A stretch of DNA of 47,469 nucleotides, the filler included, from Streblomastix strix (lineage: Eukaryota), in NCBI GenBank assembly GCA_008636045.1. It is 2 parts of 2 records of this genome, joined end to end, with 100 filler letters (N's around TTAATTAATTAA, not from the genome) between each part and the next. Parts side by side here need not be neighbours in the genome. Positions count along the whole stretch, not along the records: positions 23,799 to 47,469 come from SNRW01000266.1; 1 more part is not named here. The stretch is one strand, 5' to 3'. The notes beneath the pieces were generated by a model that saw only the letters and a program-made list of their open reading frames with translations, was not told where the DNA came from and did no database searches. Each line of letters begins with the position of its first letter. Position 1 is the first letter of the stretch. The position numbers and the translations under genes were made by a program. Below are positions 26,270 through 45,818 of the stretch, piece after piece.

Positions 26270-27900
26270 TCAGGACTGCAGTTGGGAAAACATTACTTTA
26301 TTATGAGGCAAAATGGGCTGTTATTGAGATATGATAGTCTATTGAGGTGTGAACCATAGAGATATTTGAACATTTGGATTGAACATCATTGGCTGAGGTG
26401 CATATAATGCTGATTGTAATTGGAATAGTTGCATCTGGTGATGTTGAAACTGTGACGAAGAGTATGGTTATTGAAAAAAGTTATTCATGGGGTATTGATA
26501 TTGTTATTAGTTATCAAATTGAGGGATTCCATTACGGTTTCTCTTGAAAGGTCCTCTCCCGAATCCTTAATATTACGAGAATAAAGCAGCTCTTGCTAGT
26601 TATTTGGGATTGATATATCTAGATTAGCTTCCATAGCTGTTTGCTACTTGAAATTAGACCGGATTTGAGGGCTGAAATTGGATTTGTGTTTGTTCTTGGT
26701 TTATTTAAGGTTGAGTTAACTGGTTTACAGGAGTCTGTGTAGCAGGATGGGGTTGTATAACCTAGTTAATCTACACTTGCTCCTTGATTCTATCCTTTGA
26801 TAGCTTTCCAAGAACGCCGTAAGCATCATCGCCTTTGCCGAGAGCCTCTTTAAATTATTCGTTAACGAGAGCCAGTTCGCGTCTTTGCTGTGTATCACCT
26901 GCTATGATTCTCTCGGCATGGTGGATAGTAAGGAAAAATCTTTGCACTGCAACTGGGTCCTCTTGTGTCATAGCAGCAGAACCAGCGACGCAAGCTCTTT
27001 GAATTAGGACAGCAAATTGAGAAGTTTCTACTTCAGCTTTAGCGTCACCTTCACCAGTACTAGGATGAACCCCGAATTTGTTCAGTTCTGGACCCAACAT
27101 CTCGTCTTTACGTTATAAAAGAAGCGTATGTTCGTGTTTTGAAACCCTTTTCCCAGTAGAATCTAAATCTGCAGCTTTCTTCTTATAGTACTGTTCGTAT
27201 ATTTGAGTATTCGCATCTAACTGCAATTACAAGCGTTGAGCAGCAGGTGAGTTGAGAGGTCTCCACAGGAGGGCGCGCATGAACGGCGGAACCTGGCCGG
27301 TATCATTTCCTGTACGCTAGCTCAAGCCAGGATGTTCATTTTCACGATTCATATGTTGACTTTGTTCGTCGCCATCGTGGAGGTCACCTGTTAGCATTTT
27401 GACGCGAATATGTCTTATTTTTGAAGTTTTGTTTGATCTAACCCATTGACCGGGTTTGTGTATTTCAGTACAAATGGAAACCGCATTAGACGGCCTGGGT
27501 AGTTCTAAACATAGAAGCACGGTTGGGTTTAAATAGCACTGCAAATATGATTAGTTCTCATCATTCGTTCAAGTCCATGTTACGGTATTGTAGCCTGATG
27601 CTCGCCTGGGACTGAATCTGAGCTGGTATCTGTCCAGTCTGTGTTTATATTCCTGTTCCACTTGTATATTCCTTACCCCGTCCTTATAGAATCTGCTGCT
27701 GTCCTGTTTAGGCCAAATAAAGATTGAACATCATCTGTTACTGCTGAAGTTAATGCTATAGTTAGAATTAGTTCTAATCGTTTAATTGGCCGATTTATTA
27801 TTAAGGAATGGAAGGTTAAAGTTATATTTGATTTTATTAGATCGACTATGTTGGATTTATTGGAGTTATTGGTTGAATTAGTGAAATTGGCTGATTTTGA
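26270..27900 (-). pseudogene. ORF1 (gag-like) of the retrotransposon, disrupted
   Basis: Upstream of RT on the same strand. Helical core (AVLIQRACVAGSAAMTQEDPVAVQRFFLTIHHAERIIAGDTQQRRELALV) flanked by Q/P-rich regions. Internal TGA and frameshift near 27560; ends at TGA 26272-26270. Confidence 0.6.
27733..27859. repeat. Direct repeat copy 2
   Basis: Identical to 23799-23925. Confidence 0.9.
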
Positions 27901-28376: not shown

Positions 28377-31300
28377 TCAAAAATGATAATTATGAATTTT
28401 TGTATTTCACAATGCAGATTGGTTTTTTAACGGTGATTATTTTGGATTTTTCATTTTCGTTGGCGGGCATAAATTCCCATACATTAAATCCTTTATCAAT
28501 CGTCACAGCATATTCACCATATAATTTCTCGAAATATGGGATGAATTCTTGCTTTAACTTATAGCTGTAAAAGCGTATTTTCTTAATTTATGAGACTTTA
28601 TATTCGCATTTTTGCTTAATCTCGATTCAAAACGTTTTGTTCGCGATATTTTCTGGTTTTTAACTCAATGCTACCGATGTACTCATTCCATTTTTCAATT
28701 CCATAAAGTAGTCTCTAATAAATATGTCAATATCTGTTAAAGATACTTCGATAATATCGGCAATTGCTAAAGTAAGTGGAATTTTACGAAAATTTACGGT
28801 TGAAATTTCTCTTTTTGCAAGAAATGTAAATAAATTTTCATAAAATAGTTTTTAATCACTTAATTCATTAATTTCCATGAAGAATTTAGTATTATCTGCA
28901 TAAATTGTTACGCTATCATATGTCCTAAAATTGCTATTATCATTTAATACCAAATATTTTCTATCTGTTATTGATATTTATATTGGATTGCTATGATTTG
29001 ATATTAAAATCAGGTTTGTAACATTTTATTCAATGCATGGATTTATATATTTTGCCTCATGTTCTAATTGATTGACCGTTATTATTGATTTCAATGATTC
29101 AATATCATGTTACGACATATCGCTGAACTTTCTTAGCTCATTTCTAACAGCAAATACTTTAAATAACAATGAGCTGTTGAATTTACCCCCGATTGAGGAC
29201 AATTTTGTTAAATTTCCCTCTGAATATCCATCAATTAATTCGCTTAATAAGTTCGTAAACGTATTTTTTTCCAGTACCTTCCAAGCCTGTTAATATAATA
29301 TATACTTCAGTTTGTAATTGCGGGTATTAATCAGGTGTGATATCCAATTTAAAATATTTTCATAAACTTACTCATTGTTATTTGCAATAATATGTCTTAG
29401 AAGATGTAGAAACAGTGAAATTACTTATAATTAATGATTATATAGAAGAAAATCGTACATCTAGCCTTAAAATATTGAAAAAAAACACTGGGATCTTGGC
29501 GTAGAAAACACATATCAGTAATTAATAAGAAATCCACTTAAAGATTTGCTATTTGCAACAGTTTTTACGATTTCAAATCATTATATTTCGAATGCAAATT
29601 TAGAAATTTTTTTGCAGCATCAATGGATAACCTCTGAATTTCATAAAACGGAATATTTCGAGGCAATTTGTCGTCGTTTTCGATTATATTTTCTATTTAT
29701 TCCATAATTTTATCTTGCGACTTTTCAATGCTGCAACAAAGTTGTTTCCATTGAAATACGTTTATTTACGATGGTTTCTTCTATTTTCTTATTTTTTTTA
29801 GTAAATATACCACCTCACTCCTATATTTCTAAATTTTCAGTATTTTTGTCAAGTTTGAAATAATTTCTTCGATACATTCATAAGGTTTTACTCGGATTTT
29901 ATGAATAATGTTATCTAAACCGAATTATTCTTTTATATCGATGTTATGCACTTATATCTTCTTGAAATCGATAACAGCAGTTTATGATCCGTTGCTTTAT
30001 TTCTTTTATAACGCCAATTATGTAAAAAATTGTTATATATAATAATAATCTGACTTGAACTTCTTAATAAATTCCTACAAACAATAAGGCGATTATTATT
30101 TTTCAGAATTACATTCACGATATGCCTGAAACATGTTTTCTCTAATAAAGAGTAATCACAATTTTCTTCTATATAATCATAGCATTCACTTATGAAATCT
30201 TCATCAGCATCTTCGATGGATCTCAATCCATTTATATGAGTGCACAGTGTAAATAAGCTTAATTATCCTTCTTCACCACGATGATTTGTGTGAATTAAGG
30301 TCAATTTAAGTCCACGAACTAATATTTCTGCTTATTCTTTGGTCATTCCGCATTTTTCTGAACCACTCACAATTTAGTGATTTTTGATTTTTTCCAATTT
30401 TGCTTCATCGAGCTGAATAACTTTTATGTCAAAGCCTAAGATTAGAAATACTTCTTATATTTCTGCAAGATTCGTCTTTTCATAGGCATTATTTAAGTCC
30501 TGATATTTAGGAATTGGATTTCTCAACTCACCTGTTTATCACTTCTATTTTATCTTTGGATTTAGTGGTTTTCTCATTGAATTTCGATATTTGTATATTC
30601 AAGTTCCAGATTGCACAATTCTTTTTGATTTATTTCTGTATTCAAAGTCGATTAATTCATCTATTTATCTGTCAGATATTGCATCAACTCATGCAAATAC
30701 ATCAACTGAAAAATCGTTTGCACAAATTGTATTAATCATAGAATTTTGATATAATTTATATGTGCCCATGTTACAATAAATATGAAGCCCGTCTCTTGCT
30801 GATTTAACAAGTCCGACATTGCGATGTTAATTGTATTTTTCCATCAAGATTTGCGCATCGTTTGGATTTGTAGCATAATCTTCAAAATCTTCTTGTTTTA
30901 CAGGATAAAACAGTTTAATTATGCTACTTATTATCTTACCACGCTGTGTAACATCTAATTTCTCTCCATGATCAATGTCAGTATCAATTTCCGCCAAGTA
31001 TTTGCATTGCGCAATCTCAAGAGTGCGTACAGTGCGCGTTTTATTGATATTTTTCTTGACTTACGCTTTATCGGATTGATAATTTGTTTGATAAGCGATG
31101 TTGTTATAATTAGGCAGATTAATTGACGCGAACTAAATTTTTTCAATTAATCTTTTTGATGTTTCATTTTTAGAACGCTCTCGATATGATAAATCACATT
31201 TTTTAGTGATAATCCATACTTTTCGCTACGTTTACGAAAATCCATAAAAACACCTTGTTAACCATGTTTTCCATGCGATTTATAGCCAAATTATTCATAT

Positions 31301-31461
31301 ATGAGAGGATCATCTATTTCTAAATCAAAAAGTCAAGCCCTTGACAATTAAATTAATGTCTCATCATTTGATTTTTCCTCAATTCACAGATCTTAACGGA
31401 TATATCCGAGATTTGAGACTTTTTCTTATTTGTACATTTGTCAATTAACTAAAGGCAACAT
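28377..31461 (-). pseudogene. PrimPol (AEP-type primase) fused to a superfamily 3 (D5/DUF5906-like) helicase
   Basis: AEP motifs AEIDTDIDH (~30971-30995) and LVKSARDGLHIYC (~30772-30811). Helicase: ILNWISHL, Walker A ILTGLEGTGKNTF (29264-29287), GKFNSSL, Walker B FAVRNE, LKSIIT, motif C NLILISN, TDRKYLVL. Several in-frame TGAs and frameshifts (for example near 29315). Confidence 0.85.
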
Positions 31462-31600
31462 GATAAAAATCAAACTTCATGAATTAATAATTAATTACGA
31501 CATTAATTAAAAATTTAAAAATTAAAAATAATAAAATTTAATAAATAATCATTTTTAATTTTTTAACTATTTTTTGTGAATCTATCTTTTTTGACATTTT
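31462..31600. promoter_or_regulatory. Putative bidirectional promoter between the divergent primase-helicase and PolB genes
   Basis: About 140 bp of almost pure AT between two head-to-head replication genes. The evidence is positional only. Confidence 0.35.
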
Positions 31601-34600
31601 ATCAAATCTCAAACGTCCGCCAACTCTCGCCGCAGACGACGTAATCAACGTCGAAATCAGCCTCTGAAATCATAACCTCCATTAAACAAGGCAAAAAATA
31701 ATAAAAATCATCCAAATTAGCATCATCTGTAACGGATGCGTGATTTAGTATCTCAAAAGCAATGTATTCAACAGTAAAATCAGCAAGCTAAAAATTCGCC
31801 GACAAAATCACCGACAACGTCACCAAGCGTCGCACTTAAAGAAACCGTCAAAAATTAATATCGAAAGCAGTGTCGCAATCTTAAATCAGAATCTCGCAAA
31901 CAGCGAAATAAGAAGCGTAAATAACGTAAATCTGCAAAAAAAAAGAAAAGAGATAGATGCACGAATAGATGAATCGTGAAAATTACATGTTTTGGATATA
32001 ACATTATGAGCAAAGTTTAGATAAAAATTCTCGCGAAATTCTCAGAAAAACCAAGTTGTAATTCAAGATCTCATAGATAAATACGGGGATTTTGTTTTAT
32101 AATTAGTTTCTTCTGGCGATCCCGAGTTTATGATATTATTTAAGCCGCTAAATTTGGGTTTGCTTACTTAAGCAATTAATGAAGCTAGGACCAGACACAG
32201 TGGAAATAAACTAGATTTTCATAACTTAACTAATGCAACTGCAATTACTGTTGATTTCAATCATAATGATATCCGTTCGCCGGATGATATTGACAAATTC
32301 AGCGAATATATGTATACACATGATAAAGGAAAATTATTTAAATGTATTTTTGACTTTGGTATCGGTATTGAACGTAAAGAAATGCCCGAAAACATGAAGG
32401 AATTACTGAAAACCAAATAATTTATACATAAACTCTAATATATTGACGGTCGCTGCTTAGTTACTTACAGAATTAAACTTTCTGATAACAATTTCAGTTA
32501 ATTACATGCTCCAATGATTCTATTCGACAGAAATTCAATCGACATTTTCAAAGAATACATACGTTCATCAATTTTGTTTATGCAAGAATTTGGAGAACTA
32601 ACTGATACAAAGGAATTGATTGTCACAATCTTTTTTATGTAAATTATATCACACAGACTACCTTTTCTTGGTAAAAATATGGAAAAATTGATTAAAATTC
32701 AAAAGAAAAAGAATATTATCAAATATTTTCATACTGATGATGATTATAACATCTGCTTCTGGTATAATTTAATATGTGTAACTATGCCTGATTTAAGCTG
32801 CGCCGGCAAGATTGCAGAGGAAGTGAAAATTGATAGATATAAACGGATTGCGGAAGGTAAACGTATATTATTCTCCTTTTACGGAATTCCAGAACCTAAT
32901 TAATGTAAATTTCTTAAAGATTATCCAGGATATAATTGGAATGATGCAAATAAAGTTGCTGAAAAAATTAATATAAATATCAATTGTTATGAATATGTCA
33001 GCGAAGGGTTTGAGGCTGATGATAAAAAACCCAAATATTAACGACTAATTTCATATCCTGATATGAAAGTTGATGGACGTAAATCTTATAATATTTTCTT
33101 ATTAAACGATGCTATTGGTAATTAACATATCATGTATATCATCAATGTCGAGAAGTTGATTGGTTTACTTATTTGTCCAATCTGCAACAATCATGCAACC
33201 TATTTAAAGGATGAAAATAGACCTATTTAACGCATAATGGACGTTCACATTAAAGAATGAATGATGAAACTTGGAAATCCAAATAAAAAAGTTAGATTCG
33301 AGAAGTTTTCAAAACCATTTGCACCACTTATTATATCGAATTAAACTTATAAATATCTTCTTTCTCACAATCGATTATAAAAATATAAACCAACGTAATA
33401 TTAAATTACTTTTCTATTTAACTTAGTGTTTCAATAAGAAGATGATATAAAATACCTTGTAATTAAACCAATTTCTGTAGCATCAGCAAATAAAACAAAG
33501 TCAGGAATAAAAATATGTCATTTCGACTGTAGCGAACTTTCAGTTAGCCAAACTCCGTTCGGTTTCGTAATTTAATGGCTTGATTATCAATTTGCAGAAG
33601 CAAAATAGGATAAAATCGATGATATGTATCCTGATGGGGTAAATTAACGCTACGAGGTGCAAGTAATTGGATTTGATTCGCTGAAAACATCGAATAACTA
33701 GATTTTCAGAAATCGCCAATCGAAAAACTATGAAATTGTCGATTTTATTGGATAAACATCGTCTCCTAAATACTTTATAGTTAAACCAACCGAAAAATAT
33801 CTATAAATAATGAAAAAATAAGATTAAGACATAATCTCGATTCGTCTTAAATTCATTGACTCAAATAATTATTTAGTTGACAATATTTCCTTTGAGAAAT
33901 TCATAGAAGACATTGGTCAAGCTAAGTTTTAAGAAAACGACAGCCTTTAGGCCAGCAATGAAATTGCTACAGTATCGTAATCAAAATTAATGATTAATTC
34001 CATCGATTTCTTAATAATTCTATATTTCAAAAACAAAATTAACTTATTAGCGAAAGCATCACTTGCAAAACTTGTTTGTCTTGATAAATTTTCTCATGCT
34101 TATAAGAATTTTGATATTGATACTAATTACACACCATAAACCAACGATTTACCACTTAATTAAGTAGAGAAACAATGTAAATATAAAGTGAAATCTTATA
34201 AAAAACAATACAAACTAAAAAATCGACGTACAGATCACAATATATCTGATTCTGATTATAAATATTGTCATGATTTATTTATTTCTTCTTGATGCCACAT
34301 ATGTAAAACAATATTTACTTATAAAATTCCATCAACTTTAGATAGAATTAATAATTGAAAATCGCATAACAAAACAAACGTTAAGCCTTGCTGTCTTTAC
34401 TGCAATAAATATGCATCAAACAAAGATGAAGATATGTGTCGATTTATGATATAATTTCGTAAGTTTGCATAACTTAATCATCTTGCAATGACTATTTTTG
34501 ATCAAGATGTTTATAAAATCTTGCGGAACAATACGATCGGAGGAAACTCATACGTTATGCACAGAGAGAATATATCTGGATTAACGCCAATTAACAAATT

Positions 34601-36025
34601 TAAGTACAATTCTTCAAATAAACATGTTCATTACATCGATTTACCCTATATTATCTCGCACATAACATGTTTTGATTTCAATTCCTTTTATCTTTCTGTA
34701 GAGAGCTCAAATTCGCATATTCTGATTCCGTACATAAATCATAAGATATATATGCCTGGAGATGTAACTTCAGTAATTAAGGATGAAAACAGAGCAAGAC
34801 AAATATTTTATAATGAAAATCGATTCTCTTGCGACGAAGATATCTTTGAAAACATGGCTTAATTGTTCATTGCAGTTGTTAAAACTCATCTTCCAGAAGA
34901 ATTTATCAATGAATTTATAGATTTTCCTGTAATTTGGTGAAATCTGAAGATAACAATGAATAAACAGATTGTCGGGGAATATACTTACAAAAATATGATT
35001 GAACATCACATGGCATGCGATAAAGAAGAATCAAAATTACTTACGTTATCGTCGACACATAATGAATTCATGACTTTTAACAATTATTACTTATGTTTTC
35101 TTATAGATAGATGTCATCATGTAATTGATGAAGTATAATAAGTCATAATATACAGTAAAAATACTTCATTTCACGAATTCGGAAATGAAACTCACAAGCT
35201 TAGATGTGATACTTTAGCTGCAGGTATTAAAAACCTGGAATTAATGAATAAAATAAAACTGAATGCTTCATTTGGTTATGATGTACTAAATACTGAGAAA
35301 TTTCGAGATATTAGGATATGCAATAGATAAAATCTTGGACGGTGTCATATGCTTAATATATCCATATCAGAAAGATATTTATCTGACTATTCATCGGTGG
35401 TTGAGTTAGAAAAGAGGAAATGTTAATGCTCAACACCGTTATAAGTGGCTTATTTCGTTATTGATAATTCCAAATATTTCTATCTTAATATTTTCTATAA
35501 TTTTCTTGTTCCATGTCTTGACAGGAATAAAATACATGTAATTTATGGTGACACAGACAGTTTATGCTTAGGAATCGCAGATAAAATTGGCCAATTCTGA
35601 AATAAAACTTATGGAATAAATTACATCCTAAATTCTTCCCGGCATCTGATTAAATTCACGAAAAGAAGAAATTACTTGGTTGGAACATTGAACTTCAAGT
35701 AAAATAATGCTTTGCTTTAGTCCCTAAGTGTTATTATTTAGATATATATGATAATACGGAAATTATGAAGCTAAAGTGGGTTGAACATTAGTAAAATCCA
35801 AACTTTTCAAGGTATATCTTTATCAAAAATATTTAAGATGATTATCACACTGTAGTAACAAGGAAATCTGTAATTTAAAAATAAGTTTTAACGTCAGAAG
35901 TAATATCAATTCGTGTTGGCATTAGCGAAATTAGCTTAAAAACAATAATTCTTAAAAATCAATCATGCGCACGTATCTTGTATGGAATTAATACTAATAA
36001 ATATTACGTTGAAGAAACACATTGA
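31601..36025 (+). pseudogene. Protein-primed family B DNA polymerase with basic N-terminus, putative terminal-protein/vOTU region, zinc finger, degenerate exonuclease and HNH-like insertion
   Basis: TIGGNSYVMHR; motif A CFDFNSFYLS (~34668-34697); motif B KIKLNASFGY (~35250-35280); motif C IYGDTDSL (35541-35564); ALVPKCYY. NICFW at 32748, QHIMYI at 33123, CPIC zinc finger, CHIC...TLDRINN..SH...NVKPCCLYCN at 34293-34406. In-frame TGAs and a frameshift near 35585; TGA at 36023-36025. Confidence 0.9.
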
Positions 36026-36083
36026 ATGTGAAGCTTTTAAACCGTCAACTCTTATCTTAAATTATTTTTGCTTAAGCACATAA

Positions 36084-37267
36084 ATGAACGCACAAACATA
36101 GGAAAAAGTGCCATAATGGATCGAATATAGTGCATATCATAACATGAATTAAATGAAATATTAGGAATTTGTCAAGAATCTGAATAAGTAAAATCTTGGG
36201 AAATTTAATGAGAAATTGCTTGAGAAATTATATAAATAATATATGTAAAAATATGATTAATCAAGAATTCCAAGATTACGAAACAAACCGAGGTTGCATA
36301 GTGAAAAAACAATTCGTCAGGAATAGGAACACATTTTAATGGATTATCCATTCAAATCGAAAATTTAATAATATAAGAAGATTCATGGTGAAAAGCCTCA
36401 AAAAGTGCAATAAACTCCGCCTGATTATTAAATTAAACCATTATCTAAGCTAAATCGTCCATATTATTCTCCACAATTCGGATCTTGGGAAATCGATTTG
36501 GTATTTTTAATAGATGAACATATCATTCGCGCAAATCAAATATATATCTTTTGCATAAATATTAACACAAAATATCTCGCTGTTTTTCCATTAAGAGATA
36601 AATCAGCAAGTTAAATCAAGAATGCATTGTAAATATTGATTAAGAATTATAATGTTACGAATATCAGAGGCGATGGCGAGAAAGGATTTAATAGAAATAT
36701 ACTGAAATAATTTTGTTAAGAGAATAACATTACTTCATTCTTTACCGATTCTAAATTCACAAATCATAACAGAGTTATAGATTCCGTTATCAGAACTATT
36801 CGCAATGGATTTGGCAATGATTTTGGGAAGTTTGCTGATAATGATTTAATGCAATAAATGATATAAATTTATAATTCGACTCCCCATTCTGTTTACGACT
36901 ATAAATTTACGCCAGAATAAGCCAATTCCAATCATGATATTGAAGGGATTTACATAAGATAATAGTTAAATTAAATATTTGAAATCAAAAAATGACAAAA
37001 GAAGTAAGGACATATGTCATTCTCTCCGGGAAATATTCTTATGATGCATCTTGATTATTCTAAAACAGAACATCAGTTCGTTAAATTAAGAAGAAATTTC
37101 AATGAATTAGCTTAATTCATAAGATATTCAAATGGAAATTTGGTTGCTAAGTTATTAAAACCAAATTCTGATGTAAATATTATTGAATTACCCGCATAAT
37201 ATTGCAAACTGGTTGCAAAAGAAATAAGTTAATTAGATTAAAATTTAAATAGTTTTTCAAAATATGA
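36084..37267 (+). pseudogene. Retroviral-type (rve) integrase, Polinton c-integrase-like, DD(35)D triad
   Basis: ATG at 36084; GSWEIDLV (D at 36495), CININTKYL, IRGDGEKGF (D at 36672), NRVIDSVIRTIR (D at 36780), IYNSTPHS, FTPEQA. One in-frame TGA at 36993; the 3' end is probably frameshifted near 37250. Confidence 0.85.
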
Positions 37268-37301
37268 GATCTGCTAAAATGGAAATTGTCTTTTATAAAA
37301 T

Positions 37302-37680
37302 ATGCAAAATGAAAAAATGTAAAATTCTACAAACGTCGCTGATGCAAAGAGATAATCATCACGATTTAAATATAAAACACAAGAAGAAGCACTGAAAGCT
37401 GCTGAAATTAGCTTTAATCGTGCATATGCAAAAGAATTACTAAAAATGAAAGTATAACGGTAATTTACACTAGAATTTTAGCAATATTTAATTAATAGAC
37501 TGTGAATATTGATTGTAAACAATGAAATTGACCTTGCTTTAATGCAATAAATCGCAGATAAATATGATGAAAAGGATAAGAAAATAATGGTATTTGCATT
37601 TATTGTTGATTTGAAAGAAGCAATGTAATAAAAATATGACATAATTGAAGAATGGAATTGGGTTTTAGACATACATTTTT
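37302..37680 (+). pseudogene. Small orphan ORF of the viral element
   Basis: MQNEKMQNSTNVADAKRQSSRFKYKTQEEALKAAEISFNRAYAKELLKMK...; one in-frame TGA near 37503; 3' end uncertain. Confidence 0.45.
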
Positions 37681-38377
37681 CACCGAACGAAGTTTGGCGA
37701 CGAGGAACGCAGTCACCATAAATCTGTTTCATTAAATAGTATTTCAGGAATCTTATCTTAAGGTTCAAAATCGCTTGCGATTTAGCGACGAGCTTGCACA
37801 GTCTTTGGATTCTCAGCTTACGGCGGAGTTTATGGTTGACATTAGGATTCTTCAGCTTTCTTTTACTTGAACATCTTTATTTTATCCTTATATTTTTCAA
37901 CTTATTTTATTGAATCTTGATGTTATTATTTAGTAAATGCATTTTTAGTGCGCAAACGTATTAATTCTTCAAGATCAACTTATGGTGAAGAGTAATTAAT
38001 TTAAGATTTCTTTGCTGTTTTCTATGGAGTTGACTTTGGAGTTTCACAGGTTTTTCGATTATTTCTGAACCATCATCAGCGTCATACAATAATTGATCGC
38101 TTTGTTAGAATTTAAGTTCGTTTTATGAAAATTCATCATATTCGTCATCAAATTATTCAACTTAACGTTTTGATTAACGTTTTGGTTTAGTTTAACCTCC
38201 ACCTCGTGCATACAATAACAATTTAGTTTGTTAAGCTTAAGTCAATGTCCTTGCTGATTTCTTATCTTCTTCATATACGTTTATCTTATCCTTTGCTTTC
38301 ATGATATATCCTTCATTGAAATACTCGATTGATGTTCCATTTTCCATGAGATTCTTGAGTGCTTATGCTTGATTCAT
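37678..38377 (-). pseudogene. Orphan ORF of the viral element (frameshifted)
   Basis: MNQAQALKNLMENGTSIEYFNEGYIMKAKDKINVYEEDKKSARTLTQAQQTKLLLYARGGG...; acidic and basic low-complexity middle; 3' end uncertain. Confidence 0.5.
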
Positions 38378-38453
38378 CTTGATTGACTCCGATTTGATTT
38401 TACTTAAACTCGCAACTTTAAGTTGCAAGCAAACTGAAAAAGGTTGCAAAATC

Positions 38454-39233
38454 ATGACAACAATATAAACGAATCAGATTAGAGTTCATAAAAGTAAGCA
38501 TGCAAATCCTGTTAAGAAAGAATTGTCACAAGAAGGTATGGAGAGATTATAAGCCATTGTTGACGCGATAACAAATAGTTTTCGGAAACAAATTGAAATT
38601 CCGCAGCTTTAAGTTTAACGGAACTAGCTCCAACCTATATTTTCACATAAATTGAGCAACGCAGTTGATAGCCTTTAGGCCGGCAATGGAATTGCTACTC
38701 CGATTTAATCACGTGAATTCAACATCGATGAAGATCAATAAAGAGGAATTTAAACCGATCGTCCACGACGAAGAGCATACAATATTCATAAATATAAGGA
38801 GGTTTCGCGCGAAACTGCTTAAGTTGAACCAGAATAAGTTGTAAAAGATACATATTTATCTCATCCTAACTTAGAAGTTTAGAAATTTATCATAGCTTTT
38901 GTATGGCGTACGGTAGATTCCCGTAAGAAAGGATAAGATTTCATATTCAATTCAGATAATTATATCAAACTCTTGGCATTAATAATATAAGAAGATGAGA
39001 ATTATATTGATGTTGTAGTGGAAGAACCATTGATGAGATATAATAGTTGTACTTCGAAAAAATACTAAAAGAAAGAAATCGTAAGAGTAAATGATGTTCC
39101 AATAAAGAATGTCTCAATTTCTAACCTTGATAACGTCTTATGGAATAGTATCGAGAAGCTGTATCAAGTAAATATGGACTTTGTCAGGTTATCTGATAAA
39201 CTTGAATCAGATACTGTACATGATGATTTCTGA
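38454..39233 (+). CDS. Intact 259-aa orphan protein of the viral element
   Basis: ATG 38454 to TGA 39231-39233 with no internal TGA (MTTIQTNQIRVHKSKHANPVKKELSQEGMERLQAIVDAITNSF...LESDTVHDDF*). A GC-rich hairpin follows immediately. Confidence 0.7.
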
Positions 39234-39281
39234 CGCTGCGCAAAGCTCGCGGCAGTAATCTGACTCATCAGCTTGCTCCCA

Positions 39282-40358
39282 ATGGGAGTAAAGCTTCGCA
39301 TTTCTGATTAAAATATGGAGGTTTAAGAAATGATTTATTTTTGTTGAAAACTAATGTAATAAGAAGCGTAATAAATAACTGATTTAAAAGATTCATCAGA
39401 AGAAGAACTATAATAAATAAAATCAGAATATGAGAAGTTGAAGAAATAAAAATAAGAAATATAATCACTATAGAAGTTATAGAAATAAAATATTTAATAG
39501 ATAGTTAATGAGATAATAAAATATTTTACTTATTTTAGTTAATTCTTTAAGAAATTGCAGTAAAAAGATGTTGATTTATCGCATTTAGTAACATTAAACA
39601 CAGCCTAAACTATTATTGCAACTAAATCATTTAGGAATCAAGTTACAGAATAATCTTTTAAAGAACCAGAAGGTACCAATTAATAAATTATGCTTGCAAA
39701 TGGATCTTACATGAATCATTTTAATTTTAGGCCTTATTATGATGCTGAATGTGTTGATGGAATAAGAATTTCCAGAAATTTAGCAAAATCAACATCGGAT
39801 TAGAATTTTAGCATATATCTTGGCAGTTTAAATACTTAGGAAAGTGGTGCTATAAGTGGATAATGGACAATAAGAGTAGGTAAATTAAATAGTTTATTAA
39901 TTCATCCAAGTAATGATTCATAACATGGATTAGCTATGATGAGTGATAGATTAATGTTTAATGACCTCATAATTTATCCTTCAACTTTATTAACTAATTA
40001 TTGTAGTTCCATAACTTTGAATACAAATGTTTCATTTTCGTCCGAATTTTCGACATAATTCGTCTTTAAATGGTAAAAAATGTTGTTTATTAACATGGTT
40101 CTAACAATATATGAGACAACATTCAGTTAGAAAGTAATTACATTAAGCATTCCATAAGATATTAGACCAACATTAGAAAAATAATATCTTCCACTTTAAG
40201 AAATTTCTATTTCATAAAGTTCTGCTTATCCAACGAATGTTTATTTAAGAATTAATGGTCCAATTGATGGTTATTACTGGTAAGTATGGAATAATCAAAA
40301 AATAAGTTTGTTAACAGGAAATTCTGTTACAATTAATGGAATGTATTCACTATAGTGA
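39282..40358 (+). pseudogene. Fibre/spike-like protein: N-terminal coiled coil, tail-fibre-like repeat, beta-rich C-terminal head
   Basis: Q/K/E heptad region, then LVTLNTAQTIIATKSF, GTNQQIMLANG, GIRISR, SIYLG, GQWTI, IPQDIRP. Ends at TGA 40356-40358; one early in-frame TGA near 39345. Confidence 0.55.
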
Positions 40359-40409
40359 ACGGACAACCGAGCGAAGCTCGACAACATTAGGTGTCGCTTC
40401 GTTGCCTAC

Positions 40410-40631
40410 TCACTGTTAGCCTGACATTGTGTCGAAAGTTTTGAGATTCTATAACTTCAAATACAGAATGCATATCCACATTTTAGCAAGTTCTTCGTCT
40501 TATTTTTCAATTGCTTCCTTAATGAAATCTTCTATTTATTCATCTGTGTACTTGGACCAATGTGCGGTGCATGGTAAACTTTCGGTTTAATGAAAGAATT
40601 ATTTCTCTTAAGATTTTTCTTATGATTCCAT
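40410..40631 (-). CDS. 73-aa orphan protein
   Basis: MESQEKSQEKQFFHQTESLPCTAHWSKYTDEQIEDFIKEAIEKQDEELAKMWICILYLKLQNLKTFDTMSGQQ*. It converges on the hairpin cluster at 40368-40409. Confidence 0.5.
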
Positions 40632-40683
40632 GTCTACCTTCATCTTCGGACATTGTATCTTATTTTTGTTTCTTCTACGATAA

Positions 40684-40911
40684 ATGAATTAGAATACATA
40701 GATGATTATATTCAATGGCACTAGAATCGCATCAAAATAACTCCATAATTACTTTATTAATGAAATTATTTATATAAGATATTCAGGAATAAATAATAAA
40801 ATTACAGAAACTAAGAAGTTAACTCCATAAAAAATAGAATTATTTGTTAATAGTAACAGATTCATTTGGCAATTAACTAAAGCAACTTGCTGCAACAGTT
40901 AACCTAAATGA
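40684..40911 (+). CDS. 75-aa orphan protein
   Basis: MNQNTQMIIFNGTRIASKQLHNYFINEIIYIRYSG...ATCCNSQPK*. Its TGA overlaps the ATPase ATG (ATGA). Confidence 0.5.
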
Positions 40912-41965
40912 CATTAGAAGAGATATAATCCGTTACATCGGACGATAGTCCTATACTAGATGAATACAAAACAAAGCCATTAACAAGAAATTCACTATTA
41001 TTAATCAATGGAAATCATTATATTGTTGGCGTTGTTGAGTCAGGAAAAACAACATTATTAATCAAACTAATTATAATATACAAATAAAGAATTAATCCTT
41101 TCTTTTATATTTTTCAAACTTTTGTGCTGATGAGACTATGGCATTGAGTCTTAACTCGAAGAATATCATATTAACCAAGATAACTTATGAAGATGCAATG
41201 TATTTCTTACCATAATTTGATGAAATCAAGTATTCAGTAAAAGAAGTCTATATTTATTAGAAATTACGTGAACTAAACATATCTTACAAATCAAATTATA
41301 CATAAAGAATTAAGGAAAGAATTATTCAAAGTAATCCAATTAAAGAGAATCCAACACGTCTTGCATCCGCGTCTATCGAGAAATAATTGGAGAAACCTAA
41401 GGATTATGCAAGAAGAATTGCTGAGAAATTTGAAAAAGAGTGCATTGATAAAATAATTAAATACAGTGTTTCGACAATAATTATGAGATTTACTCTCCCA
41501 GTATTCATTTATAATGTGTATTTCGAGAGGAAAATATCTATTTCATAAGTAAATGGAGATGCAGAGTTAAAAATATCAAAAATTCCTATATTATTTCATA
41601 GTTTACTGTTAAATTCATTGTTAATATTTGATGATATTGAAAGTAATGCTGATATATAAAGATTCTCTTCATGATTAGCTAAGACAATAACTCATTTAGT
41701 TTCCGACAGTAGACATAGCAAAAATACTGTTTTCTTTGTTGCATAACGACCAAGTTATTTGTTCAAAACTGCAAGAATATTATCACATGTTATATGTTTA
41801 GGTGTTAATCTATCTGAAAGTGATTTAAAACAAGCTTATGAAGAGAAATCTATTTGGAATCTAGACTTTGATGAGTTTATGCTAGTATATGGTACTCTTA
41901 ACAAGTATGAATTCATAATACTTAATAAATATTAAAGTAAATATGAAATACTAAAGAATCAATGA
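40908..41965 (+). pseudogene. A32-like (FtsK/HerA) genome-packaging ATPase
   Basis: Walker A YIVGVVESGKTTLL (~41019-41060), Walker B SLLIFDD (~41614-41635), DSRHSKNTVFFVAQ, LFKTAR. Frameshift near 41105, in-frame TGA near 41672; TGA at 41963-41965. Confidence 0.85.
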
Positions 41966-42003
41966 TAAATTATATGATTATATTTATTTTTCTTTATTCA
42001 AAT

Positions 42004-42523
42004 ATGACAGTAGCTAAAACCTTAAGTTAGTAATAGATCTAAGTTATTCGTTTTTCAATTTAACCTGATTTCCAATATTTGATACAATATCAGAGGAAAT
42101 TATCAAGTTCAAGCGGTTAATTACCAAAAAGTGAATATTAATAGTAGATGATTAGAATTCATATATACATGCACTAATAGATTATACTTAGAATTTTGCA
42201 ATAAAACTGGAAACTAATGGTGTTATGACATTGAAGAATATAAATTTATTAAATAATGATTTTTTTGCAAAAATAACTACATTAGAACAGGAAGTTAATG
42301 TGATATAATAGACATTGGGAACTGCAATTTAAGATATTTGTGGTATTTAATAATAAATTAATGTAAATAATGATGAACTTAATAGATAAATACATTTTAG
42401 AGGATACTATTTACTGAACTCAGATATATAATAATTAGAAAACTCTGCCAATGGAGATTTTGCATTCTCCGCTGATAGTGGAACAGTATGGATGTATGAT
42501 TAGAATTGGTATAACATTCGTTG
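42004..42523 (+). pseudogene. 5' part of a second fibre-like structural gene, truncated at the right edge of the element
   Basis: Coiled coil (LEQEVNVIQQTLGTAIQDICGIQQQINV), then ELNRQIHFRGYYLLNSDIQQLENSANGDFAFSADSGTVWMYDQNWYNI, which resembles the FxG...GD....WxY..W module of viral structural/fibre proteins. Frameshift near 42145; breaks abruptly into AT-rich DNA. Confidence 0.55.
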
Positions 42524-42981
42524 ACAAAGCAATTATTTCTTAAATCATATTACTGTCATTAATATTATACTGTTTTCCATGTAAATATTTTATTTTAACC
42601 AAATAAAAATACATTAAATGTGTAAATGTGTTCGAAAATTTTGCTATTTCAGTAATTATGATTTTATACATACAGAAAACGGCAATTGTTTAATTAAATC
42701 CAAATTCTCAACCATTAACAGATTATGTGTTTCAATAAATATTTAAATGAAACGATGCATATATTATTATTTAAATACCTGATGATGCGCCGAGCACTAT
42801 TTTAGTAGCGAGGAGAATTGTGAGTGCAAGCATTTTCCTATTGATTTCATAAGATTTGTTTAACTTTTATTACTAAAAGTTACTTTTCAATTATTTAAAA
42901 AATAAGAATATATTTTTGATTGTTTTTGATACTCTACAAGATTTATTTATAAAATTCGTTGATATTTCTACTACAAAACTC

Positions 42982-45818
42982 ATGGAAGAAAGTTTATAGT
43001 GCCAACAAAATTCTACTGATATGGAGTCATCAATTCGAACACAGTCATAATCTGAGAATAATGTATGCTGTGATAAATTTACAAGTTTTTGTAATTCTTG
43101 TTTATTTGCGCAATCATCTATTAATTCCAGTGTATTATAATTATTTGATATTTAAATATTATTTTTATTATATTTATTATATAAAATCTTTTTAAAACAA
43201 TTTTTTCAAGTCGATAATAACAAATCATAATAATTTAACTTTCTTTCACTTTTTCTTTTTAGATAATCCTATTTGACAATTTTAAATTCATATTTATTTA
43301 TTTTTATGTTATTTTTATTAATGAATTATAGATTAAACTACAGATTGCATAACATGCTGCACATTTACGCCTGCCAGAAATTTCTGACGAAGATAAAATC
43401 GGGTCACTAATTCAACTAATTATTTTGGTTGTGAATAGTATGTATTTTATCTAAATCAATATTTTTTAGTAAGATTTTATAATTTCAGTTGCTGAAAGTG
43501 AGTGGAATGGAATAATAACGACAAGTGGAGTTGTTGAAACTGTTTCAGGATTGATGCTTGAAACTACCAATCCTAAAATCCGCGTATGATAATAGCTTTA
43601 TTTATATCAATAACTATTTTTACTATTTCAAATTGATCAGACATTATGTGGAGCTGTGATTGAAGTAATATAACAACGTGGGTGTGAAAGTGGAGAATCA
43701 ACTGACTGGGGATTACTTCTCTCACCAATTGTCTCACTACTATTTGTATATTTCTTTATTTTATTATTAAATTGTTATATTTTTATTTGAATATATTATT
43801 TATTATATAATCAGAATCCAGATGAAAAGATATCAGAGATTGGAAAATAATCTCTTATGAAAGTTGCTGATCGAAATCCTGAAGCACTTTGTGGGCTCAT
43901 TGAAATTGGATTGTTTGACAAAACATCTGAATTACTTAATCTCACATTTCCTTCTTCATAATCATCTTAATTATCTGAAAAACTATCGTAAAAAGTCATA
44001 TTAAATATTCTTTAAGTTGTTGAATCTATAATTCGTGAAAATGCTTAAGCAGAAATGAAAGCAAAATAATTAATGAAAACCGCAGAAAGAATAAAACAAT
44101 TAAATCCACCCAGACAGATTAAAAGTGTGATTAGTTCAATTATATCCATTTTAGATGATGAATAAGAACAAAATGAAAATAACATTGATAATGATAATAT
44201 TGAAAGATCAATATAAAATAAGATTTAAGAATTAGAAAGAAAAGTTATTGAATCCGAAGAGAGAATTCGTATATTCGAATTGAATAGAAGAGATTCTGAA
44301 TTGAAATTGAGAGAAAATGAAGAAAAATTAAGATTAGTTGAATAAGAAAAAGAAAATGAAAAAGCAAGGGCTGATTAATTGGAATAAGAGAAATAACAGT
44401 TGGTCATACACCTATCGTAGAGAAGATTCAGGAGAGAATTTTCAATCACATCACCAAATATACAACAACAAACTTAACAAACACCAATTGTACCTTAATA
44501 AGCTGCTCCTGCACCAGTTCTAATTGGCGCTCCATAACTTATAGGTTTGAATAATTATGAATTGAAATAAAATGTTGAATAAAAAGAGATGATATTAATT
44601 CTTTATAAAATATTCATATATAAATTTGATTATTATTATATTCCTTTACTATAATCATAATATTAGTACAAGATAAAATTGACTTCACTCCTCTAATATC
44701 ATATCCTGACGATGTTATCATCAATTAGAATCTGTTTACACACACCAATGAGAATGATTATAATTGCACTATTCTCTTTAACCCTGTAATTACCAGTGGA
44801 ATAACGAAATTTGAGATATTCACTGTTCAGGATATATTCAGTGTTATATATTTTATTTATTTGGTGATTTTGAGAAAAAAATATAATTATATTATTTGTC
44901 ATAATTTCCTTTATTGTTTATTTACTAATGTATTTTATTTAATTCATAAACAGATCTCGGAATTGCAGAAGAATCGGCCACCTATGAACGAAAAGAAATA
45001 CCTTTTCCAAAAAGTATATAGAATATAAAAATATGTTTAATATTTAATTATTTTATTTTATTACCAATTTTTTAAATAATAATTAGGAGAAAAAAGGTCA
45101 ATTTTGTACAAGAGTAAGTATGTTCTATGTATATTTTTTAATTAAAATAAATATTCAGTTCATTGTTAAATTAAATTAAAACATTCTTTTATATTATTTT
45201 ATTATTTGTTATTATTATATAATTAGTGGAACAATTCATCATATTGAATATCACCATATGGGGTGCAACAGTGTGTTTTATAATCACCAGAGTATAGCGA
45301 TGGAAGTTTGCATATTATGAATATAGATTAATATTTTAGAGAAATATGAATAAATGATTTAATGAATTTAAATAGAGTAGATAATTTTCTAATTGATTTA
45401 TTATTTCAATTTATTATTAATTTATTCTAGTTAAACCTTGAATCTGACCCAACAACCTTGACCTTCTTCTTGAATAACAAAGAATAGAAGATATATATTA
45501 CACATATACCTCATGCTGTTAGATTCTGGGTAGGGAGAAATATATATAATATTTAGTATATATTTATTTGTATATATCTATTTATGAAATATATTAATCA
45601 ATAGAAAATCATTTTTATATTTAATAAGTATTGAATATATAAAAATATAATTTATCAATATTTGCTCTTTTTATTATTATTCTATTTATTATTTACTGAC
45701 ATAGGTCTGCATTTCCAATAAAGGATCAGCATTCAAACTACTTAACTTCGAAAAGATAGCTGAACCAAAAGCAAAACACGGATATTCTTCCTGGAAATGC
45801 AAATGGGAAAATGATTGA
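42982..45818 (+). CDS. Multi-exon host protein: helical N-terminus, coiled coil, C-terminal B30.2/SPRY-like beta domain
   Basis: Exons bounded by GT-AG. C-terminal CTILFNPVITSGITKFEI / LGIAEES / SIAMEV-NLESDPTTLTFFLNNKEQKIYITHIPHAVRFW-VCISNKGSAFKLLNFE; TGA at 45816-45818. The start codon is uncertain. Confidence 0.65.

Follow-up and report, generated by a model that had tools for sequence, protein, structure and literature searches.

Streblomastix strix is a termite-gut oxymonad protist. The Mavericks/Polintons of T. vaginalis resemble the S. strix element described here in having a metamonad host and in encoding a DNA polymerase B with protein priming (pPolB), an integrase and an ATPase, and they use the standard genetic code. 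They carry phage-tail-repeat fibres (PMC12220804) and are still ungrouped in a recent classification, in which metamonad Mavericks and PLVs remain unplaced (10.64898/2026.06.19.733378). For S. strix, table-6 endogenous viruses with 820 capsid hits are already published (Bellas 2023, PMC10120064). Our locus resembles these Metamonada-group elements in its S. strix host, table 6, intronless viral-type genes and hundreds of diverged copies, but they are defined by capsid genes and the present copy has none. Host and table-6 coding, which mark their capsid cluster, were both found here; the cluster is otherwise drawn from capsid proteins that group with the MCP of T. vaginalis and S. strix, and the present copy is placed in it putatively. 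In the covered part of that source we found no gene-level description of the S. strix elements.

The mavirus genome combines pPolB with an SF3 helicase and an rve integrase (PMC11161782, PMC3671162), but the mavirus helicase stands alone without a recognisable primase domain, whereas that of S. strix is fused to a Prim-Pol. No adenain-type protease was seen in the S. strix copy, and of the hallmarks of mavirus-type virophages (capsid, protease and a conserved morphogenesis block) neither capsid nor protease is found in this truncated copy. PLVs and group-2 Polintons with AEP-SF3 share the AEP-SF3 fusion, the A32 ATPase and fibres, which are putative in S. strix; there AEP-SF3 replaces pPolB, mostly with tyrosine recombinases, whereas in S. 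strix it lies beside pPolB and a DDE-type integrase. The descriptions consulted treat pPolB and AEP-SF3 as alternative modules replacing each other, and according to Yutin 2013 the two do not seem to be combined commonly. Nematode and oomycete Polintons are known to carry an HNH insert in pPolB, which is said to be absent outside their pPolB2 (10.1101/2023.08.22.554363), which, compared by description, would set S. strix apart from T. vaginalis.

A decayed table-6 element in S. strix

The window is the whole 47,469-nucleotide stretch of S. strix DNA that was analysed; an N spacer (23699-23798) divides it where two contigs were joined. We observed a Maverick/Polinton-type endogenous viral element from about 28377 to ~42559-42632 (28377-42590), with the following features.

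28377..31440, minus strand: Prim-Pol (AEP), helical domain and SF3/D5-like helicase; ~1000 codons, broken
31760..36025, plus strand: putative pPolB; ~1400 codons, broken, start predicted
32730..33140, plus strand: probable vOTU protease domain within pPolB, with Cys near 32754 and His near 33126
34260..34410, plus strand: candidate HNH/endonuclease VII-like zinc finger in pPolB, between exonuclease region and palm
36084..36995, plus strand: rve-type integrase; open frame, no internal stop
37014..37913, plus strand: broken stretch with a piece of the integrase tail and orphan frame(s); no family match
37880..38380, minus strand: small basic orphan; conserved in other copies
38454..39233, plus strand: 259-aa orphan; conserved, open frame
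39354..40358, plus strand: putative fibre gene 1; open frame, coiled-coil N-terminus, rest beta-rich
40410..40700, minus strand: small orphan frame; no family match
40902..41965, plus strand: A32-like packaging ATPase; broken
42060..42523, plus strand: putative fibre gene 2, 5' part; truncated
42559..42632, no strand: right boundary, from multicopy to single-copy DNA; truncation without TIR

The window holds 134 ORFs of at least 100 aa under table 6 versus 4 under table 11, and a Gln that is invariant in 19/19 aligned ATPase relatives corresponds to a TAA codon at 41744-41746. Counting TAA/TAG against Gln in relatives gave 45-68%, a figure that is partly circular because the relatives' proteins had been translated in table 6. 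GC is uniform at 28% across the element, and the genes are tightly packed and co-oriented. The genes for pPolB, Prim-Pol-helicase and ATPase are all broken by TGA stops and frameshifts, and the present copy is unable to replicate or package itself. Among the scanned frames of this truncated copy we found no capsid gene, neither a double-jelly-roll major nor a single-jelly-roll minor one, and no match to an adenain/Ulp1-like protease; Rfam gave no family match. Motif positions were read by eye.

On the right, summed contig depth is 34620 within 42256-42632 and 42 beyond, a single-copy contig begins at 42559, and the element ends in a break inside putative fibre gene 2. A retroelement adjoins the left end. 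TIRs and a 6-bp TSD were looked for and none was found, the right end being a break in a gene and the left abutting the retroelement.

A preliminary description had reported a truncated, metamonad-type Polinton-like endogenous element at 28377..42523, and this holds for the most part. Its gene order and strands were confirmed by ORFs and alignments of relatives, its table 6 coding by the ORF counts and the invariant Gln, and its statement that neither adenain-type protease nor capsid is visible agrees with the scanned frames. The left start also stands, but multicopy sequence extends beyond the right end given there, to ~42559-42632. The genes it listed are present, although their decay (TGA stops, frameshifts and the break inside putative fibre gene 2) had been overlooked.

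Two replicase genes and an integrase

On motifs and modelled fold, the N-terminal domain of 28377..31440 is assigned to the Prim-Pol clade of the AEP superfamily. The Prim-Pol motifs (DxD, His and a third acidic residue) are conserved across the alignment of relatives. One of these, P0172, aligns to 31437-30125 (71% identity over 363 aa; frameshift near 31202), and its predicted structure matched the pRN1 Prim-Pol (Z 7.5, rmsd 4.0, 147 aligned). This model is closest to the pRN1 and CAPP Prim-Pols, and Prim-Pols fill the first 2 VIA rows and the first 9 Foldseek rows; the scores are middling (Z <8, best Foldseek E 0.032, model pLDDT 53.7) and belong to the relative. The Pfam Prim-Pol family reached E 0.19, on one relative only, and a PDB sequence search with the Prim-Pol profile gave nothing significant. 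Four further contigs carry close relatives of the Prim-Pol (68-77% identity). Three of 15 matches (P0164, P0165, P0167) were left out because they are long proteins aligning at their low-complexity start alone. Within the SF3 helicase part, DUF5906 matches 28630-29514 (E 1e-12) and PHROG primases match at E 7e-6; the Walker A of the helicase sits in a different reading frame. The gene contains at least 4 stops (in-frame TGA at 30691, 30601, 30541 and 28629) as well as frameshifts. A weak search among 2304 candidates found no helicase relatives of at least 486 aa.

The motifs suggest that 31760..36025 encodes a pPolB of the Maverick/Polinton type: polymerase motifs A, B and C follow in order near 34670, 35260 and 35550. 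Four in-frame TGA codons (33258, 34290, 34356 and 34938) and a frame change near 35598 interrupt it, and no significant Pfam, PDB or phage match was found. Judged by eye from the layout in PMC11161782, 32730..33140 is likely a vOTU protease domain; the candidate gave no profile match. The candidate HNH insert has two Cys pairs flanking a His-Asn stretch, and its best phage match is annotated as endonuclease VII (40% over 55 aa, E 0.05); Pfam gave no match and a PDB sequence search nothing significant. On that pattern and E 0.05 match, it would resemble the HNH-like zinc finger within the pPolB2 of nematode and oomycete Polintons. Several "modified" features are known from this decayed copy alone and may reflect decay.

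The integrase shows a D(58)D(35)D triad at 36495, 36672 and 36780 (spacing counted by eye), giving the three acidic residues, with Asp as the third, of a Maverick/Polinton rve integrase. Both Pfam rve (E 0.047) and an IS30-type DDE transposase profile (E 0.0019) scored below cut-off, and a PDB sequence search gave nothing significant.

The claim of a PrimPol-SF3 helicase divergent from pPolB is thus supported by the DUF5906 match, the motifs and the relative's fold match to pRN1, and that of a DD(35)D integrase by the 35 residues counted between the second and third Asp of the present copy. The pPolB was also recovered, on motifs A, B and C and with no profile match, but the description of it as unusually modified goes too far: an HNH insert in pPolB is already known.

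The right half and its relatives

The ATPase is broken by 1 frameshift near 41100-41123 and 1 TGA at 41672. It has 36 S. strix relatives, with PF04665 in 4; P0121 passes Pfam Pox_A32 (25.6 bits vs a 22.8 cut-off). Since a relative 85% identical to the present gene passes Pox_A32, the A32/FtsK-like ATPase of Mavericks/Polintons is present, as first described. A PDB sequence search with the ATPase profile gave nothing significant.

Pieces of the small basic orphan occur in gene models P0083, P0084 and P0111, where it shares its direction with the next orphan. The 259-aa orphan found 179 matches among 466 candidates, and 119/119 non-self matches listed are from S. strix. It was left unassigned when considered as a capsid or minor capsid protein: its predicted structure is too poor for a call (pLDDT 42.5) and has a mixed alpha/beta fold, the best Z is 3.4 with none of at least 5, and there is no PDB sequence match. 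Its Atlas features are PDZ-like (at most 0.84), a lead only.

Gene model P0094 repeats the succession from orphan to putative fibre gene 1, which had one phage match (E 0.6) and which we tentatively take to be a fibre gene from its general resemblance. Models P0134, P0144, P0155 and P0156 fuse the ATPase to putative fibre gene 2; the match stops at 42515 and the models continue into His-x-His repeats. P0155 weakly resembles a 1123-aa phage protein located before lysis genes (E 0.02). Neither putative fibre gene matched a PHROG, Pfam or NCBIfam family, and BLAST found no likeness between the two. The two "fibre-like" genes thus keep the position and order first given to them, while their fibre identity is without a family-level match.

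Gene order in the right half is conserved across the family. An orphan relative adjoins an ATPase relative on 6/36 contigs (null mean 0.64, P 5e-5), and both are full length in many cases. Contigs from one sequencing run, which may be the source sample, were mapped onto 31700-43000 only, to the right of the Prim-Pol gene and left end; 4717 mapped, 3182 of them <95% alike, and all 30 bins were covered. Multicopy DNA also occurs upstream of pPolB, on the side of the Prim-Pol gene. In summed depth, pPolB and the right half are far apart, with a step at the pPolB-integrase junction; it was not taken as copy number because contig depth cannot rank genes.

On another S. strix contig (21,840 bp), the gene model P0169 couples a Prim-Pol domain to a segment with motif C of a pPolB (E 8e-7 against the present pPolB). 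Its arrangement differs, the two replicases reading the same way, and its Prim-Pol shares only ~30% identity; a head-to-head replicase pair was seen in no other copy. Order conservation in other copies was found for the right half (6/36 vs 0.64) but not for the replicase pair. Neither a Prim-Pol relative (0/13) nor a published capsid tag (0/4) was found within 4 locus tags of any relative of the orphan or the ATPase. Viral and metagenome contigs yielded 0 related loci, in a search whose back-translated patterns may miss TAA/TAG Gln.

Origin and meaning of the replicase pair

We consider it probable, with some reserve, that the locus belongs to a multicopy family of Maverick/Polinton-like endogenous viruses of S. 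strix, coded in table 6, and is a copy in decay that is truncated on the right; the ancestor of this family likely replicated a linear genome with pPolB, aided by the Prim-Pol-SF3 helicase. What was observed is which genes are present, their code and breaks, the multicopy state and the right-half order, and the replication scheme is drawn from known families. By analogy, synthesis by pPolB would begin at the ends of the genome, from a terminal-protein domain of its own that the vOTU domain would release. Ahead of pPolB the SF3 helicase would open the duplex, as proposed for mavirus, and the Prim-Pol fused to it would serve to re-prime, or to prime the strand that is displaced. Genome insertion would fall to the integrase and packaging to the ATPase, into a double-jelly-roll capsid that the lost part would have encoded, and the putative fibres would bind the host cell.

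An unlikely alternative is that an ordinary pPolB-integrase Maverick acquired, within or beside it, an independently mobile AEP-SF3 gene, so that the locus is a snapshot of replicase exchange with redundant, non-cooperating systems. PLVs often exchange their replicase modules (10.64898/2026.06.19.733378), AEP-SF3 genes have been proposed to be partly autonomous (10.64898/2026.10.13.758929), and the replicase arrangement is unlike between the present locus and P0169. However, both replicases co-occur at these two unrelated S. strix loci, and the Prim-Pol relatives on other contigs are spread much as those of the other genes are. It is quite improbable that fragments of different repeats, brought together by chance or by chimeric assembly of a single-cell metagenome, make up the 14 kb: the conserved right-half order, the packed, co-oriented genes of uniform GC and the full coverage of 31700-43000 (30/30 bins) argue against it, although the family is highly repetitive, no run contig spans the whole stretch, depth steps at the pPolB-integrase junction (not a copy number) and a retroelement adjoins the left end. 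Very improbable is a capsid-less self-synthesising transposon rather than a virus, with ATPase and fibre-like genes as relics. The present copy has no capsid gene and no capsid tag was linked to the subfamily, but the break of this copy lies within a gene, relatives of the ATPase and of the orphan are frequently complete, and the genome contains 820 capsid-gene hits according to the covered part of PMC10120064.

Under the favoured reading of a decayed virus copy, the code, the host and the majority of the individual genes had been described before, and the present copy is dead. The alternative code is published for S. strix viruses (PMC10120064). The phage-like fibres had been put forward as part of a poorly described combination; such fibres are known in T. 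vaginalis elements (PMC12220804). Of the claimed novelty, the unusual combination of two replication systems survives. In the passages and supplement rows consulted, we found no printed account of pPolB and AEP-SF3 within one element.

The two replicases side by side likely worked together; related viruses usually carry one. It is possible, though we hold this tentatively, that the endogenous viruses of oxymonads are a lineage of their own, stably keeping an HNH-bearing pPolB, a Prim-Pol-SF3 primase-helicase and a DD(35)D integrase. If true, this dual-replicase lineage would represent the hybrid state, called uncommon, from which virophages and PLVs have been suggested to descend, or through which they may have passed, and hundreds of copies would be available for dating replicase exchange. 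In conclusion, a family keeping both replicases would reveal a two-enzyme stage of replicase swaps, or the cooperation of both.

Two broken replication genes of the element

We observed two broken replication genes side by side, on opposite strands:

31440 to ~28377, - strand: one Prim-Pol-helicase gene, broken; 5' part probably Prim-Pol, 3' part SF3/D5-like helicase
~31760 to 36025, + strand: pPolB of ~1400 codons, broken; polymerase motifs A, B and C read by eye, in that order

The 3' part of the first gene was identified as an SF3/D5-like helicase (DUF5906, E 1e-12; PHROG primases, E 7e-6) whose Walker A is displaced to another frame. For the 5' part, 15 relatives were found among the 1.84 billion proteins searched; 12 were retained, and the ten of these looked up comprised nine S. 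strix proteins and one JGI metagenome protein. Three motifs of the AEP type, the superfamily of Prim-Pol, are kept across the relatives. Fold evidence came from a model (pLDDT 53.7) of one relative, P0172, which shares 71% identity with the window gene over 363 aa. When this model was compared with 48,161 chains, the pRN1 Prim-Pol took ranks 1 and 2 (Z 7.5 and 7.4; rmsd 4.0; 147-149 aligned), and an unrelated helical protein reached Z 7.3 on a different part of the model. Foldseek placed Prim-Pols in the top nine rows (best E 0.032). These data support, with moderate strength, a Prim-Pol assignment for the 5' part.

The pPolB frame is interrupted by TGA at 33258, 34290, 34356 and 34938 and by frameshifts, and it gave no significant library match. 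By eye, we recognised an OTU-like Cys and His ahead of the exonuclease region, a layout matching the description of Polinton pPolBs in the accessible text of PMC11161782, and an HNH-like zinc finger ahead of the palm, with endonuclease VII as its best phage match (E 0.05). HNH inserts are found in nematode and oomycete pPolB2 and are reportedly absent from other pPolB2, according to the accessible part of 10.1101/2023.08.22.554363. No exonuclease motifs were recognisable in pPolB of this copy, which reflects either decay or a lineage trait.

A 32-nt GC-richer repeat lies in pPolB (33939-33970) and, 91% alike, at 38667-38698 in the orphan, a conserved 259-aa protein encoded at 38454-39233 (+). 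It is in frame in both genes, and the orphan relatives lack it. A second short insert type was seen in 5/120 orphan proteins, in 1/20 Prim-Pol matches and near 37770-37803. Both types resemble small mobile inserts that stay in frame and are spreading through the virus family.

The preliminary description had proposed two replication systems in one element, and the adjacent genes bear this out. A gene model on another S. strix contig (21,840 bp), P0169, opens with a segment holding pPolB motif C (match to the window pPolB at E 8e-7) and runs on into a Prim-Pol ~30% identical to that of the window; therefore, both replicases occur together at a second, distant locus, in the same direction there. 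Judged from sequence, the pair is real at this locus and probably recurrent. In the openly accessible literature searched, which did not extend to paywalled papers, supplements on bioRxiv or gene maps given only as figures, one paper names both Streblomastix and Polinton, and no description of pPolB and AEP-SF3 in one element was found.

Remaining genes and genetic code

The integrase frame is open (rve E 0.047; IS30-type E 0.0019). Asp residues are encoded at 36495, 36672 and 36780, and the spacing read in this copy is therefore D(58)D(35)D, in agreement with the DD(35)D integrase described earlier. The third Asp may be family-wide or confined to this copy, and the accessible text of PMC10045372 does not decide between the two. 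The ATPase of this copy has two breaks, and an 85% identical relative passes Pox_A32. The S. strix gene model P0154 fuses part of an ATPase with a KilA-N domain (E 1e-11), hinting at KilA-N genes in some copies. KilA-N genes occur in Trichomonas Mavericks.

The 259-aa orphan had 179 matches and no assignable fold by structure prediction and by fold and sequence comparisons. Phage-like fibres had been claimed for two further genes. Neither gave a family match; relatives of fibre gene 2 carry His-x-His repeats in its continuation, and one matched a large phage protein whose gene precedes lysis genes (E 0.02). Together with a general resemblance to fibre proteins, these features give both genes a putative fibre identity. 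The other contig holds a second fragment of fibre gene 2 at 763-1024, in a more advanced state of decay (63% DNA identity over 231 nt).

Coding by table 6, as first described, was confirmed. The window holds 134 ORFs of at least 100 aa under table 6 versus 4 under table 11, and TAA at 41744 encodes a glutamine invariant in 19/19 aligned ATPases. TAA/TAG stood opposite Gln in relatives at 45% (ATPase, n = 327), 68% (orphan, n = 1465) and 57% (Prim-Pol, n = 47) of aligned positions, percentages that are partly circular. Streblomastix strix was the source of 119/119 non-self relatives of the 259-aa orphan among the matches listed and of 36/36 ATPase relatives, which identifies this oxymonad as the host.

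Gene order, copies and element ends

The gene order was recovered in part in other copies. An orphan relative lay at most three locus tags away for 6/36 ATPase relatives on same-length contigs (6/20 on contigs of at least 4.5 kb), against 0.64 ATPase-orphan neighbours with shifted locus tags as the null (P 5e-5), in a test that took in 119 of 178 orphan matches. In fused gene models, fibre 1 again follows the orphan (P0094), and fibre 2 again follows the ATPase (P0134, P0144, P0155, P0156). Against a recurrent replicase pair, 0/13 Prim-Pol locus tags were near orphan or ATPase tags. Three gene models suggest that the small orphan (37880-38380, -) is inverted in some copies.

Contigs of sequencing run X1, which may be the source sample of the assembly, occupy 30/30 bins of window 31700-43000; of 4717 records there, 439 were at least 99% identical and 3182 below 95%. 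Summed contig depth, which is not a copy number, rises ~10-fold or more at 35847, the pPolB-integrase junction. This step may reflect many copies with other or no replicases.

X1 depth falls to single-copy level past 42632, and a single-copy contig begins at 42559. The right end is a truncation, because relatives of fibre gene 2 run on past 42515, where this copy stops. Searches of this copy for TIRs, TSDs and capsid motifs gave none, and its characterisation as truncated and lacking a visible capsid gene was upheld. On the left, the element meets a region resembling a DIRS retroelement (24899-26218 matches RVT_1, E 2e-19):

24899-27397, - strand: remnant of a DIRS-like retroelement, with RT/RNase H at 24899-26218 and a gag-like frame at 26270-27397

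No tyrosine recombinase was seen in this remnant. A 162-nt direct repeat (23799-23960 and 27733-27894; 97.5% identical), with its first copy at the contig start, is either a retroelement terminal repeat or an assembly effect. The N spacer with a palindromic 12-mer at 23699-23798 is an artificial join of two contigs; therefore, no sequence left of it neighbours the element. Host DNA at 18008-18200 contains a tandem array of 14-15-nt units.

Proposed replication and place among known viruses

Starting from the observed gene identities and breaks, and by analogy with known families for every role, we propose that the ancestor was most likely a linear dsDNA virus. Synthesis would begin at the genome ends, primed by the terminal-protein domain of pPolB, with the SF3 helicase opening the duplex, a role already suggested for it in mavirus. 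The Prim-Pol would prime anew or copy the strand that is displaced. Genome insertion would fall to the integrase, particle assembly to the ATPase and a since-lost capsid gene, and binding of the cell to the fibres. This copy is defective.

In their accessible parts, published accounts cover much of this setting. Bellas 2023 (PMC10120064) reported 820 capsid matches in S. strix, recognised a Metamonada group and described use of the host code, and Bellas 2026 (10.64898/2026.06.19.733378) left Metamonada elements ungrouped and described how pPolB and helicase fusions replace each other. In Barth 2026 (10.64898/2026.10.13.758929), pPolB is tied to DDE integrases and AEP to tyrosine recombinases, and stand-alone SF3 helicases are noted beside PolB. 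AEP-helicase and PolB are placed in separate elements in PMC11296320, and phage-tail-repeat fibres are described in T. vaginalis PLVs in PMC12220804. We infer that the element belongs to the capsid-defined cluster. In conclusion, the element is real and decayed, a member-like copy from an S. strix endogenous virus group that is already known, and its new aspect is the dual replicase.
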